Below, piece by piece: positions 17,117 to 21,696 of a DNA stretch of 64,000 bases. The DNA lies in the NCBI RefSeq assembly GCF_044324875.1, contig NZ_CP172185.1. The stretch is one strand, 5' to 3'. A program made the position numbers and the translations under genes. How positions within the stretch are numbered: the stretch's first letter is position 1; the number at the start of each line of letters is the position of its first letter. The DNA is from Escherichia coli. GTDB lineage: Bacteria > Pseudomonadota > Gammaproteobacteria > Enterobacterales > Enterobacteriaceae. Below the pieces are notes generated by a model. It saw only the letters and a program-made list of their open reading frames with translations. It had not been told where the DNA came from and made no database searches.

Positions 17117-17184
17117 GTTTGGGAAGTCGGTGTGTTTTGTCGCCTGGATAAGACTCGTCAGCGTCCTACCCGGCAATCAGCATC

Positions 17185-17592
17185 CTATTTGCTCATCATC
17201 TTGCGCACCAGCTGCATAAACAGCTCCTGCTCTTCTCCACTCAAACGCCCCAAAAATTCCGCATCCACACTGTCACCAATCGGTATCGCCGCAGCAAGTA
17301 CCTTTTCTCCTTCGGCAGTCAGCCAGACAAAGCGTCGCCGCTTGTCAGCGGCGTCATGTTCACGTCTGACTAAGCCACGATTTTCCATTCTTGCCAACAT
17401 TTCTGCCAGCGTTGCTTTGGTGCTGACTGCTGCTTCTATCAGTGCCGCCTGTTCGATACTAGGCTTATCAGCAATGGCGCGCATCACCGCGTACTGTGGT
17501 TTGGTGAGGTCAGGTAACTCGTGCTGCCAGCGAGCCGTGTGCTGCTGAAAAAGCTGTCGTAACTGATGGAACGCTTTATTTCGTAACGCCAT
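17185..17592 (-). CDS. MarR/SlyA-family transcriptional regulator
   Basis: Winged-helix MarR-like ORF; start placed at ATG 17592 (MALRNK...) which has a GGAG RBS, rather than the ORF-track start 17625; divergent from the ecdB-like operon. Confidence 0.7.
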   Translation of the reverse strand: MALRNKAFHQLRQLFQQHTARWQHELPDLTKPQYAVMRAIADKPSIEQAALIEAAVSTKATLAEMLARMENRGLVRREHDAADKRRRFVWLTAEGEKVLAAAIPIGDSVDAEFLGRLSGEEQELFMQLVRKMMSK

Positions 17593-17738
17593 GTAAACTC
17601 CGGGCAAACTATCTGCCGCTATCATAGCGGTTTTTCAGTGACGAAGAAGATGTTGTTACTTTTCAGTGCTTGCCGCGATGAAAACAGAGGCGTATTTTAA
17701 TAATAACGTTCGTATACGAACAATTAAGAGAATAAACA

Positions 17739-18332
17739 ATGAGACTGATCGTCGGGATGACAGGGGCTACCGGTGCGCCTCTTGGGGTGGCATTACTGCA
17801 AGCGCTGCGGGAGATGCCGAATGTCGAGACTCATCTGGTGATGTCGAAGTGGGCGAAAACCACCATTGAACTGGAAACGCCTTACAGCGCTCGCGATGTT
17901 GCTGCCCTCGCAGACTTCAGTCATAACCCGGCGGATCAGGCGGCGACCATCTCCTCAGGTTCCTTTCGTACCGACGGCATGATCGTTATTCCGTGCAGTA
18001 TGAAAACGCTCGCCGGTATCCGTGCCGGTTACGCCGATGGCCTGGTAGGGCGCGCGGCGGACGTCGTGCTCAAAGAAGGCCGCAAACTAGTGCTGGTGCC
18101 GCGTGAAATGCCGCTTAGCACCATCCATCTCGAAAATATGCTCGCACTTTCACGCATGGGCGTGGCGATGGTGCCGCCGATGCCTGCCTTTTATAACCAT
18201 CCCGAAACGGTAGATGACATTGTCCACCACGTGGTAGCCCGCGTGCTGGATCAATTTGGCCTCGAACATCCTCACGCCAGGCGCTGGCAAGGATTGCCGC
18301 AGGCCCGGAATTTTTCTCAGGAGAATGAATAA
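17739..18332 (+). CDS. UbiX-like flavin prenyltransferase (decarboxylase B subunit, EcdB/KpdB/BsdB family)
   Basis: 197 aa, MRLIVGMTGATGAPLG... flavoprotein fold typical of UbiX/Pad1; first gene of a B-C-D operon. Confidence 0.85.
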   Translation: MRLIVGMTGATGAPLGVALLQALREMPNVETHLVMSKWAKTTIELETPYSARDVAALADFSHNPADQAATISSGSFRTDGMIVIPCSMKTLAGIRAGYADGLVGRAADVVLKEGRKLVLVPREMPLSTIHLENMLALSRMGVAMVPPMPAFYNHPETVDDIVHHVVARVLDQFGLEHPHARRWQGLPQARNFSQENE

Positions 18333-19759
18333 TGGCATTTGATGATTTACGCAGCTTTTTACAGGCGCTTGATGACCACGGCCAGTTACTGAAAATCAGC
18401 GAAGAGGTGAACGCGGAACCGGATCTGGCAGCCGCTGCCAACGCCACCGGACGTATCGGCGATGGTGCACCGGCGCTGTGGTTTGACAATATTCGCGGCT
18501 TTATCGATGCCCGCGTTGCAATGAACACCATCGGTTCCTGGCAGAACCACGCGATTTCCCTCGGCCTGCCGCCAAACACCCCGGTTAAAAAACAGATTGA
18601 TGAGTTTATCCGCCGCTGGGATAACTTCCCCATTGCCCCGGAGCGCCGCGCCAATCCAGCCTGGGCGCAGAACACCGTCGATGGCGACGAGATCAATTTG
18701 TTCGATATCCTGCCACTGTTTCGTTTAAACGACGGTGATGGCGGTTTCTATCTCGACAAAGCCTGCGTAGTTTCCCGCGATCCGCTCGACCCGGATAACT
18801 TCGGCAAGCAGAACGTCGGCATCTACCGCATGGAAGTGAAGGGCAAGCGTAAGCTCGGCCTGCAACCGGTGCCGATGCACGATATCGCTCTGCATCTGCA
18901 TAAAGCGGAAGAACGCGGTGAAGATCTGCCGATTGCGATCACACTCGGTAACGATCCGATCATCACCCTGATGGGGGCCACGCCGCTGAAATACGATCAG
19001 TCTGAGTACGAAATGGCGGGCGCGCTGCGCGAAAGCCCGTACCCGATCGCCACCGCCCCGCTGACCGGTTTTGATGTGCCGTGGGGTTCAGAAGTGATCC
19101 TCGAAGGGGTCATCGAAAGCCGTAAACGCGAAATCGAAGGGCCGTTCGGTGAGTTTACCGGCCACTACTCCGGCGGGCGTAACATGACCGTGGTGCGTAT
19201 CGATAAAGTCTCTTACCGTACCAAACCGATTTTCGAATCGCTCTATCTTGGTATGCCGTGGACCGAAATCGACTACCTGATGGGGCCTGCCACCTGCGTG
19301 CCGCTGTATCAGCAACTGAAAGCCGAGTTCCCGGAAGTGCAGGCGGTAAACGCCATGTACACCCACGGCCTGTTGGCGATTATCTCCACCAAAAAACGCT
19401 ACGGTGGCTTTGCCCGCGCGGTGGGCCTGCGTGCGATGACCACGCCGCACGGTCTGGGCTACGTGAAGATGGTGATTATGGTCGATGAAGACGTTGATCC
19501 GTTCAACCTGCCGCAGGTGATGTGGGCGCTCTCTTCGAAAGTGAACCCGGCAGGGGATTTGGTGCAGTTGCCGAATATGTCCGTGCTGGAACTCGACCCC
19601 GGCTCAAGCCCGGCCGGTATCACCGACAAGCTGATTATCGACGCTACCACGCCTGTCGCCCCGGACAACCGTGGTCACTACAGCCAGCCGGTGGTGGATT
19701 TACCGGAAACCAAAGCCTGGGCTGAAAAACTGACCGCTATGCTGGCCGCACGTCAATAA
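18332..19759 (+). CDS. UbiD-family non-oxidative hydroxyarylic acid decarboxylase, C subunit
   Basis: 475 aa; start overlaps the B-subunit stop; size and position of UbiD-like subunit C. Confidence 0.85.
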   Translation: MAFDDLRSFLQALDDHGQLLKISEEVNAEPDLAAAANATGRIGDGAPALWFDNIRGFIDARVAMNTIGSWQNHAISLGLPPNTPVKKQIDEFIRRWDNFPIAPERRANPAWAQNTVDGDEINLFDILPLFRLNDGDGGFYLDKACVVSRDPLDPDNFGKQNVGIYRMEVKGKRKLGLQPVPMHDIALHLHKAEERGEDLPIAITLGNDPIITLMGATPLKYDQSEYEMAGALRESPYPIATAPLTGFDVPWGSEVILEGVIESRKREIEGPFGEFTGHYSGGRNMTVVRIDKVSYRTKPIFESLYLGMPWTEIDYLMGPATCVPLYQQLKAEFPEVQAVNAMYTHGLLAIISTKKRYGGFARAVGLRAMTTPHGLGYVKMVIMVDEDVDPFNLPQVMWALSSKVNPAGDLVQLPNMSVLELDPGSSPAGITDKLIIDATTPVAPDNRGHYSQPVVDLPETKAWAEKLTAMLAARQ

Positions 19760-19769
19760 GGAGAACAAG

Positions 19770-20704: not shown

Positions 20705-20728
20705 TAATTTGAGCATTTTGGTTTGGAG

Positions 20729-21592
20729 TTAGTCTATTTTTTTTGAAATAATGGCGTTGATCTGTTTATCAGTAAATTGACCTTGGGCTTTGGCTTTATT
20801 TAACCAGAGCAACGCTTCTTCTTTATTTATGCCATTTCCATCAAGCCCCCAGGCATAAATTTGTCCTAAAGTAATTTGTGCAATAGGTAAGTTTTGAGTA
20901 GCAGCTTTCTCAAACCAGTATTTAGCCTGTCGTATATCTTTGGGAACGCCCTGACCATTAAAAAAAAGTGTCCCATAATTATATTGGCCGAGTCGCTGAC
21001 CCTTTTCTGCCGCTATTTTTAAGTGAGGGATAGCTTCAGCATACTTATTCTCTTGAATTCCGATAATCCCTAAGTTTGCATGTGCAATAGGATTGTCCTT
21101 CTGTACTGCTTTCTGAAGCCAATACTTGGCTTTGTTAATGTTTTGGAATTCCTGTGGGCCAAATTGATAAATATTCGCACAGTTTATTTGAGCTTGTTCA
21201 TTCCCTTTTTCTGCCGCTTTCTCATACCAGTATATCGCAATACGATAGTTAGGCCCCGTATTATCATATCCGTAATGATAAATCTGTCCTAAGTAAAATT
21301 CAGCTTCATCATAATTTTGCTTTGCTGCAAGGTTGAGCCAATAAAATGCTTTGTTTATATCCTTCACTGAAGGACTTTCAGATAGACCATTCAGGTATAT
21401 GAGTCCCATCACCGTTTGTGAGGCTTTATCGCCATGTTGAGCCTTGGCAATGATATCCTGCAGTTTATTTCGTGATTCCTTCGTAATATTATTTAATACT
21501 TGCTCGGGAATATCAAAATGTGAAGGGGTATCTTCGGCGCCTATTGCAGTGGCGCTAATTATTAAAATTATTGATGCAATCGTTATTCTCAT
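20729..21592 (-). CDS. Secreted Sel1-like repeat (SLR/TPR-like) protein
   Basis: 287 aa with N-terminal signal peptide MRITIASIILIISATAIGA and repeated ~36 aa units (AxxWxxKAAxQGxxxAQxxLGxxY pattern); markedly AT-rich coding sequence. Confidence 0.8.
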   Translation of the reverse strand: MRITIASIILIISATAIGAEDTPSHFDIPEQVLNNITKESRNKLQDIIAKAQHGDKASQTVMGLIYLNGLSESPSVKDINKAFYWLNLAAKQNYDEAEFYLGQIYHYGYDNTGPNYRIAIYWYEKAAEKGNEQAQINCANIYQFGPQEFQNINKAKYWLQKAVQKDNPIAHANLGIIGIQENKYAEAIPHLKIAAEKGQRLGQYNYGTLFFNGQGVPKDIRQAKYWFEKAATQNLPIAQITLGQIYAWGLDGNGINKEEALLWLNKAKAQGQFTDKQINAIISKKID

Positions 21593-21663
21593 TTTTTTCT
21601 TGAATGTTTTGTTCTTAATAGTGTTTATTTTACTCCTTTTTTATCTATCGGATAAGAGATATA

Positions 21664-21690
21664 TGAGCCCCGAAGTTTAATCGGGGCTCA
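21664..21690 (-). terminator. Intrinsic terminator after mutS
   Basis: 10 bp stem TGAGCCCCGA ... TCGGGGCTCA immediately 3' of the mutS stop on the - strand. Confidence 0.65.
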
Positions 21691-21696
21691 TTAATA

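Follow-up and report, generated by a model that had tools for sequence, protein, structure and literature searches.

A recurrent amber codon in ecdD and the probable ancestry of hosA-ecdBCD in the polymorphic mutS-rpoS interval of Escherichia coli

The chromosomal interval between rpoS and mutS is known to be polymorphic in Escherichia coli. Four patterns of the o454-nlpD region have been described, including an o454-negative, O157-like one ("pattern I") and one with slyA-kpdBCD (PMC4209514). In that paper, LeClerc 1999, Herbelin 2000, Culham and Wood 2000, and Kotewicz 2003 are cited for the polymorphism, which by this account has been in the literature since 1999-2000. We analyzed the interval in a stretch of 64,000 nucleotides from E. 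coli (contig NZ_CP172185.1 of assembly GCF_044324875.1; the whole stretch is referred to below as the window), in which ecdD, the gene for the small subunit of a hydroxyarylic acid decarboxylase, carries an internal amber codon.

Decarboxylases of this type (VdcBCD, EcdBCD, or KpdBCD) are encoded in the order B-C-D, as they are in the window, and consist of a UbiX-type synthase of prenylated flavin mononucleotide (prFMN), a UbiD-type decarboxylase, and a zinc ribbon protein. By analogy with characterized orthologs, hosA-ecdBCD would constitute a ligand-inducible detoxification and catabolic module. EcdB would prenylate FMN to supply prFMN to EcdC, and EcdC/EcdD would carry out the reversible decarboxylation of 4-hydroxybenzoate, vanillate, and related acids to phenol and related phenols, with EcdC expected to be active only when bound by the zinc ribbon of EcdD. 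VdcD, a four-cysteine zinc ribbon, forms a tight complex with VdcC and is indispensable for its activity; VdcD touches the loops with the catalytic Glu-Arg-Glu and forms salt bridges via R12, R36, and E39, and only its proline-rich tail is dispensable (PMC8379154). The regulator HosA is treated in a preprint (10.1101/2024.04.24.590444), which, as summarized secondhand, places a palindrome recognized by HosA downstream of the transcription start, reports repression by HosA of its own gene and of the operon that is lifted by 4-hydroxybenzoate, and terms hosA "horizontally acquired," from Shigella.

The region in the window is the o454/ygbN-negative (O157-like) form of the documented mutS-rpoS interval, with the addition of a Sel1 gene of the kind seen in E. 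coli 042 and related strains. As in pattern I, o454 (ygbN) and the other ygb genes are missing, and hosA (slyA)-kpdBCD adjoins rpoS. It is very likely, taking the locus as a whole, that hosA-ecdBCD is an ancestral occupant of the interval, that its ecdD gene was interrupted by an amber mutation at a Dcm site, and that pphB and the Sel1 gene form a separate AT-rich block. Open reading frames (ORFs) of the window were located by ORF listing with translations, and curated NCBIfam models were judged by their own cutoffs. Six genes (i.e., hosA, ecdB, ecdC, ecdD, pphB, and the Sel1 gene) lie between rpoS and mutS. The features of the interval and its flanks are as follows.

16072-17064, plus strand: rpoS, the left flank gene of the variable interval.
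17078-17111, plus strand: intrinsic terminator hairpin of rpoS (terminator scan, junction comparison), the left boundary of the variable interval.
17185-17592, minus strand: hosA, MarR/SlyA family, 135 amino acids (RefSeq start; the ORF reaches 17625).
17708-17721, unstranded: perfect 14-bp palindrome GTTCGTATACGAAC (sequence, hairpin/palindrome scans).
17739-18332, plus strand: ecdB (= pad1 or kpdB), UbiX-family flavin prenyltransferase (NCBIfam VdcB, PDB 1SBZ).
18332-19759, plus strand: ecdC (= yclC or kpdC), UbiD-family prFMN-dependent hydroxyarylic acid decarboxylase (NCBIfam VdcC, PDB 7AE4).
19770-20006, plus strand: ecdD, zinc ribbon subunit gene with an internal amber codon (translation, NCBIfam VdcD, PDB 7AE4 chain a).
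19872-19874, plus strand: TAG in place of the TGG of Trp35 in ecdD (translation, locus comparison).
20016-20043, unstranded: hairpin resembling a repetitive extragenic palindrome (REP), GCCGGGTA...TACCCGGC, between ecdD and pphB (sequence).
20048-20704, minus strand: pphB, lambda/NinI-like metallophosphatase, Ser/Thr phosphatase (NCBIfam PRK09968, PHROG 246; the ORF reaches 20716).
20729-21592, minus strand: Sel1-like repeat gene, 287 amino acids (Pfam Sel1).
21663-21691, minus strand: hairpin just 3' of the mutS stop codon (terminator scan), the right boundary of the block divergent from K-12/O157.
21697-24258, minus strand: mutS, the right flank gene.

These genes had been recognized in a previous sequence-only reading of the window, which placed pphB and the MarR-family, UbiX/UbiD/small-subunit, and Sel1 genes here, in what it took to be the variable rpoS-mutS interval. 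All of the ORFs were found, the profile and PDB matches agree with each of its domain calls (i.e., MarR, UbiX-like, UbiD-like, small subunit, PphB, and Sel1), and the same interval is polymorphic both across E. coli and in the literature. That reading also stated that K-12 has ygb genes and pphB between rpoS and mutS, as is indeed the case (ygbN-ygbI and pphB), and stated that ygbI-ygbN are missing here. A tblastn search of the whole window with the K-12 YgbI-N proteins revealed no ortholog, only a 29% identical DeoR paralog at approximately 51955-52701; thus, of the observations that it named as fatal to its view, neither ygb homologs in the interval nor B and C proteins devoid of UbiX/UbiD domains were encountered.

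The window differs from the described decarboxylases in its D gene. Codon 35 of ecdD is TAG, and the translated product has 34 amino acids instead of 78. With the stop codon read as Trp, the protein scored 121.2 bits against NCBIfam NF041205 (VdcD; cutoff, 30); as it stands, the window does not encode an intact D subunit (i.e., a four-Cys zinc ribbon of approximately 70 to 78 amino acids). The three-gene B-C-D operon of the sequence-only reading is contiguous, with the ecdB stop codon overlapping the ecdC start at 18332 and ecdD beginning 10 bp past the end of ecdC, but it is not intact, the TAG having been overlooked. Codon 35 is TGG in all comparison loci except the amber carriers (L101 to L106), which were retrieved for carrying the amber codon, via exact look-ups of the window MutS protein and the 34-amino-acid product. 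Exact-pattern scans for the TAG allele in the species-representative genome collection and in metagenome contigs gave no match.

The amber allele is real, because two independent assemblies, GCA_044144425.1 and GCA_900482385.1 (L101 and L106), are 100% identical to window positions 17065-21696 (4,632 bp), TAG included. Another 22 similar places were reported. A sister assembly, GCA_014589615.1 (L100), differs from the window at four sites and has TGG at codon 35. At least three other local haplotypes show the same TGG-to-TAG change; among them are an O157-like one, seen both in the O157-type architecture and in that of the "long" E. coli type (which has hosA-ecdBCD and ygbN-I together), and a 042-like one. 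The 34-amino-acid product was found on 222 contigs, versus more than 1,000 for each intact form. Two other amber 67-mers (O157-like and 042-like) had no exact match in any complete RefSeq E. coli genome, and no complete genome was more than 98.1% identical to the window in the ecdD region. The amber allele is thus rare but recurrent.

The enzyme of this strain is probably inactive, since VdcC depends on the D subunit for its activity. Truncated EcdD keeps both CxxC knuckles and ends after the second, so that the invariant Trp35, Arg36, and Glu39 are lost along with all residues beyond them; the heteromeric enzyme is therefore probably not formed. It is unlikely that the TAG codon is a sequencing or assembly error, or that it is silent because a zinc knuckle of 34 amino acids still activates EcdC. 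Such an explanation would fit a change of a single base, a peptide that retains both CxxC motifs, the lack of further decay in ecdB and ecdC of the window haplotype, and the report that deletion of the C-terminal tail of VdcD barely affects activity (PMC8379154). An error is contradicted by the two assemblies identical over 4,632 bp, by the 22 similar places, and by the presence of the same change on other haplotypes. Silence is hard to reconcile with the loss of the strictly conserved Trp35, of the salt bridge residues R36 and E39, and of the strand after the second knuckle; moreover, the tolerated VdcD tail deletion is far shorter (58-residue chain in PDB 7AE7). On two of the long-type amber contigs (L102 and L104, 1564-2990), ecdC is also split into two ORFs, which suggests further decay of the operon after the loss of ecdD.

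The sequence context of the mutation points to its source. The ancestral ACCTGG at the Thr-Trp codon pair holds CCTGG, a Dcm site (CCWGG). Dcm sites are mutation hotspots, as work by Coulondre and colleagues in 1978 and by Lieb in 1991 is said to have described. Deamination of 5-methylcytosine at the inner C of the complementary strand (CCAGG to CTAGG) would convert CCTGG to CCTAG, and we infer from the hotspot behavior that this was the origin of the amber codon. A single origin of the amber allele, followed by its spread among haplotypes through short-tract recombination rather than repeated mutation of a hotspot, is improbable. Such a spread would be favored by the mosaic nature of the mutS-rpoS interval, in which recombination is documented. 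However, a single-nucleotide polymorphism (SNP) that precedes the codon by 7 bp and the mutated base by 8 bp separates the O157-like amber haplotypes from that of the window, as do further SNPs 19 to 25 bp downstream, so that a conversion tract would need to be shorter than approximately 30 bp. For each amber haplotype there is also a TGG counterpart whose 32-bp flanks are the same or nearly so (identical for L100, L001, and L002; L103 and L002 differ at one flank site), and the change is exactly that expected for 5-methylcytosine deamination at CCWGG. Given the TGG counterparts and the SNP 8 bp from the mutated base, independent recurrence at the Dcm site is much likelier than recombinational spread.

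The other two decarboxylase genes are well preserved. EcdB scored 312.8 bits against NCBIfam NF041206 (VdcB; cutoff, 290) and 245.9 bits against TIGR00421, and it matched PDB 1SBZ ("probable aromatic acid decarboxylase"), which we take to be Pad1 of E. coli O157:H7, over residues 1 to 197 (431 bits); a protein identical to EcdB was listed in 17,063 collection blocks. EcdC scored 789.2 bits against NCBIfam NF041204 (VdcC; cutoff, 650) and aligned end to end with VdcC of S. hydroxybenzoicus (Sedimentibacter; PDB 7AE4 chain A; 537 bits, residues 3 to 471), and the Pfam domains UbiD_N, UbiD, and UbiD_C were found on a protein identical to it. All three NCBIfam cutoffs for the subunits are therefore passed, that for D with the stop read as Trp. 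The ecdC genes of the window and 042 encode identical proteins and differ in DNA at 25 sites; ecdB and ecdC together show 42 nucleotide differences from 042, all of which are synonymous. HosA, EcdB, and EcdC are intact and are presumably under purifying selection or were only recently freed from it.

The hosA product matched PDB 8AGA ("Transcriptional regulator HosA," from E. coli O127:H6) over residues 1 to 134 (272 bits), and Pfam MarR was found on hosA orthologs. The two HosA proteins are near-identical, hosA occupies the same divergent position beside the decarboxylase operon, and a palindrome precedes ecdB; we found no difference of substance. In the window, hosA and ecdB are transcribed divergently, and the palindrome GTTCGTATACGAAC ends 17 bp before the ecdB ATG. 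For the comparison across genera, we used 80 loci returned by an EcdC scan of species-representative genomes, onto which the window proteins were mapped. With up to two mismatches, the motif was present just 5' of the operon in 76 of the 80 loci, including those of Rahnella, Pantoea, Erwinia, and a Vibrio. This conservation makes the palindrome a candidate HosA operator. A MarR-type HosA dimer would bind it and keep the operon repressed until released by 4-hydroxybenzoate. In some Enterobacterales loci (e.g., L066, L067, L076, L079, L088, and L090), no ecdB separates hosA from ecdC-ecdD, and the palindrome stands before ecdC.

The layout itself is already known, being annotated in RefSeq for 042 and about 180 other complete genomes. 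E. coli 042 (NC_017626.1, 3122386-3127017) has the same gene order and orientation from rpoS to mutS, with 98.5% identity to the window across 4,632 bp; its EcdB and EcdC proteins are identical to those of the window and its Sel1 gene is 99.9% identical. In 042, hosA is annotated as a MarR-family regulator and the Sel1 gene as a tetratricopeptide repeat (TPR)/Sel1 protein. The two genomes differ in an ecdB-ecdD patch that is 2.3% diverged, in the mosaic of mutS, and at codon 35 of ecdD, where the TAG is the window's. Clusters of differences lie at 17903-20090 (from ecdB into the 3' end of pphB), 21853-23448 (in mutS), and 24455-24661 (in the mutS-ygbA spacer), and the stretches around rpoS, hosA, and sel1 are near-identical. 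No complete E. coli genome was more than 97.7% identical to the window in the ecd operon; the core sequence of the strain was 98.4 to 98.8% identical to the nearest complete genomes (over 24 kb). Such clustering is what the recombinational mosaic reported for mutS would lead one to expect in this region.

O157:H7-type genomes share with the window the direct succession of hosA-ecdBCD, pphB, and mutS and the REP-like hairpin 3' of ecdD, and ygb genes are lacking in both. Unlike the window, O157:H7 has no Sel1 gene, its pphB is a K-12-like allele with 86% nucleotide identity to that of the window, and its pphB-mutS spacer is unrelated to the Sel1-mutS spacer here. K-12 has ygbN-ygbI-pphB and no decarboxylase module. 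Among 5,426 complete E. coli genomes, 2,415 (approximately 44%) carry ecdBCD and 181 carry the Sel1 gene, all of the latter at 99% identity or more.

The synteny of the 80 loci bears on the age of the module. We found rpoS within the flank in 51 of them and mutS in 48, and 39 showed the window order and orientation (i.e., rpoS forward, hosA reverse, ecdBCD forward, and mutS reverse). These 39 loci cover Citrobacter, Enterobacter, Klebsiella, Kluyvera, Kosakonia, Leclercia, Atlantibacter, Franconibacter, Mangrovibacter, Pseudocitrobacter, and others. The distance between ecdD and the mutS 3' end is no more than 160 bp in 21 of these loci (shortest gap, 49 bp), and rpoS-hosA-ecdBCD-mutS is presumably the minimal, original interval. 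Elements related to the REP-like hairpin after ecdD occur in Pseudocitrobacter, Citrobacter, Enterobacter, O157, and 042; the long type of E. coli has the ygbN terminator hairpin in that place instead. Composition is ordinary as well. Scored against the 54 ORFs of the window, ecdB and ecdC (57.5% GC) have GC z scores of +1.1 to +1.2 and z scores for GC at third codon positions of +0.7 to +1.6, similar to mutS (56.1% GC) and the hyc/hyp genes, and the GC z score of hosA is -0.2. A search of the window interval for signs of mobility revealed no tRNA gene, integrase, insertion sequence (IS) element, or flanking direct repeats. K-12 and the window share the first 46 bp past rpoS, and the K-12 junction has the appearance of a clean excision of hosA-ecdBCD from the rpoS terminator to the ygbN terminator.

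The synteny, the conserved palindrome and hairpin, and the ordinary GC content argue that the decarboxylase module is not an acquisition. Judged from these comparisons, hosA-ecdBCD is most readily seen as an ancestral, vertically inherited occupant of the interval, which K-12 appears to have lost by a deletion whose edge coincides with the rpoS terminator. The claim that hosA was acquired from Shigella fails on the same evidence. The sequence-only reading had taken K-12 as the reference state, in which the ygb genes were replaced by two independent foreign modules, a GC-rich MarR and decarboxylase operon and an AT-rich Sel1 gene; there is little chance that this model is right. Some observations do fit it. 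The interval is a recombination-prone mosaic, with patches that diverge from 042 at 17903-20090 and in mutS; allele identities vary strongly from gene to gene; the Sel1 gene is compositionally foreign and rare; and the HosA preprint, again as summarized secondhand, calls hosA horizontally acquired. Nevertheless, for the decarboxylase module the replacement model is largely refuted by the synteny data. The module is syntenic across many genera and its divergence tracks that of the flanking housekeeping genes. The supposed GC richness is a z score of about +1.1 and no outlier, and none of the mobility signs listed above accompanies the genes. Nearly half of the complete E. coli genomes carry the module, and the long type has both ecd and ygb. 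In addition, the divergence from K-12 takes in pphB and the Sel1 gene together, as a single block. With 39 syntenic genomes, K-12 is better described as the deletion state than as the state into which a decarboxylase module was brought.

In Salmonella enterica subsp. diarizonae and subsp. arizonae (L038 and L039), the ecd operon has the opposite orientation with respect to rpoS, and ecdD is the gene next to rpoS. Both modules share the interval there, ygb genes lying beyond hosA (ygbM to ygbI in L038 and ygbI only in L039). We also considered whether the O157/042-type junction of E. coli could be a simple deletion of the long type; this was ruled out by the REP-like hairpin in its spacer, an element that the long type lacks.

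The rightmost part of the interval has a different character. PphB scored 457.3 bits against NCBIfam NF007425 (PRK09968; cutoff, 332) and falls in the NinI/lambda-phosphatase PHROG (PHROG 246). The pphB gene has approximately 86% nucleotide identity to the K-12/O157 alleles, and its product has 85% amino acid identity to K-12 PphB. Its GC content is 41.9% (z = -3.1), and that of the Sel1 gene is 37.8% (z = -4.2), which bears out the earlier description of the latter as AT-rich and compositionally foreign. The Sel1 protein has four Pfam PF08238 repeats at E values of 1e-4 or lower and a weak fifth one, and a signal-like hydrophobic segment at its N terminus suggests that it is probably exported. 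Its gene lies 12 to 24 bp upstream of pphB on the same strand. The Sel1-mutS spacer matches the K-12/O157 pphB-mutS spacer only over the last 25 bp or so before the mutS stop codon, and the block that differs from K-12/O157 measures approximately 1.6 kb (about 20048-21670). The sequence-only reading held that pphB had simply been retained and that the Sel1 gene had been acquired alone. Neither idea holds up, as pphB is itself a divergent, AT-rich allele and the two genes differ from K-12/O157 as a unit; the pair is best read as one AT-rich block of apparently foreign composition rather than a retained pphB with an inserted neighbor.

The atypical composition of pphB-Sel1 is coupled with the restricted, near-clonal distribution of horizontally acquired cargo. 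Sel1 orthologs were found only in E. coli, Pseudocitrobacter (91%), and Citrobacter (52 to 57%), and similarity elsewhere is of the generic repeat kind (40% or less). A Pseudocitrobacter metagenome-assembled genome (L022) has the same pphB-Sel1 pair adjoining mutS, with nucleotide identities to the window of 90.5% for pphB and 93.1% for the Sel1 gene; in this genome, ecdC and ecdD reach 94 to 95% identity, and nlpD, hosA, ecdB, and mutS only 70 to 86%. Across the Pseudocitrobacter loci L019, L022, and L023 (approximately 10001-13300), nucleotide identity to the window is 92 to 95% for ecdC and ecdD, 69 to 86% for the flanking nlpD, hosA, ecdB, and mutS, 88 to 90.5% for pphB (L019 and L022), and 93% for sel1 (L022 only). 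This pattern suggests an intergeneric exchange over ecdC to sel1, with a breakpoint near the ecdB/ecdC junction. The ygb cluster (missing here) and the AT-rich pphB-Sel1 pair thus look like lineage-specific additions to the interval.

Two other loci have genes for small secreted proteins in the ecdD-mutS slot, namely, Escherichia sp. E1V33 (L021, 12466-12999; 177 amino acids) and Citrobacter werkmanii (L026, 11682-12308; 208 amino acids), one beside pphB and the other beside a Sel1 homolog; their likeness was judged by eye. The slot beside the mutS 3' end looks like a site of variable AT-rich cargo. The best PDB match of the Sel1 protein was EsiB (c5321 of E. coli CFT073, PDB 4BWR; 171.7 bits in three stretches), which also consists of Sel1-like repeats and after which a UniRef entry names the Pseudocitrobacter ortholog. 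EsiB has 467 rather than 287 amino acids and is encoded at a different locus, and the likeness holds at the repeat level only, so that no function can be transferred. A role of pphB-Sel1 as a defense system was discarded, PADLOC having returned no meaningful match.

Some points weigh against the reading preferred here. Truncated EcdD retains all four Cys ligands, and residual activation of EcdC is possible, as is read-through of the amber codon or the action of a suppressor tRNA. The operator assignment is based on conservation and a secondhand summary of the literature rather than on original footprint data. Furthermore, because the O157/042-type junction is no simple deletion derivative of the long type, more than one order of gain and loss of ygb and pphB within Escherichia is conceivable. 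It is highly improbable that the ecdD amber codon is a selected, revertible or suppressible off-switch for phenol-producing decarboxylation, placed at a Dcm site whose very short patch (VSP) repair, assisted by MutS/MutL, the neighboring mutS influences, and that Sel1-pphB is, separately, a mobile functional two-gene unit (exported repeat protein and phosphatase; Escherichia, Pseudocitrobacter, and Citrobacter) at the mutS slot.

Outside the interval, a gene for a Mop/TOBE (molybdenum-pterin-binding) protein of 142 amino acids lies between ygbA and fhlA (24928-25356, minus strand). Its slot is empty in K-12 and O157 and filled in 042-like and long-type genomes; this corresponds to the size polymorphism of the fhlA-mutS amplicon already described as "c3292." Type I-E cas genes occupy 134-5080 (casA is cut by the window start; casC and cas1e were confirmed), and a clustered regularly interspaced short palindromic repeat (CRISPR) array with at least nine repeats and a 61-bp period lies at 5466-5963, upstream of iap and cysDNC. 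No Rfam family was found across positions 14000-26000. A Shigella origin of the DNA, which the interrupted gene had brought to mind, was rejected, as the window ORF listings showed no IS element and intact flanking genes.

Overall, little of this is new, as the mutS-rpoS region, HosA, and EcdBCD/KpdBCD had all been described before. What changes is the direction in which the interval is read: the ecd operon would be an old resident in Enterobacteriaceae and K-12 a deletion derivative, with pphB-Sel1 as a probable import, and this ancestry argues against the recent claim that hosA came from Shigella. The sole mildly new element is the recurrent Dcm-site amber codon in ecdD. A single Dcm site in a conserved Thr-Trp codon pair seems to have given rise to the same presumed null allele repeatedly, which is a small population-genetic observation. 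The strain is probably unable to turn 4-hydroxybenzoate into phenol, a trait that bears on phenol production in the gut.

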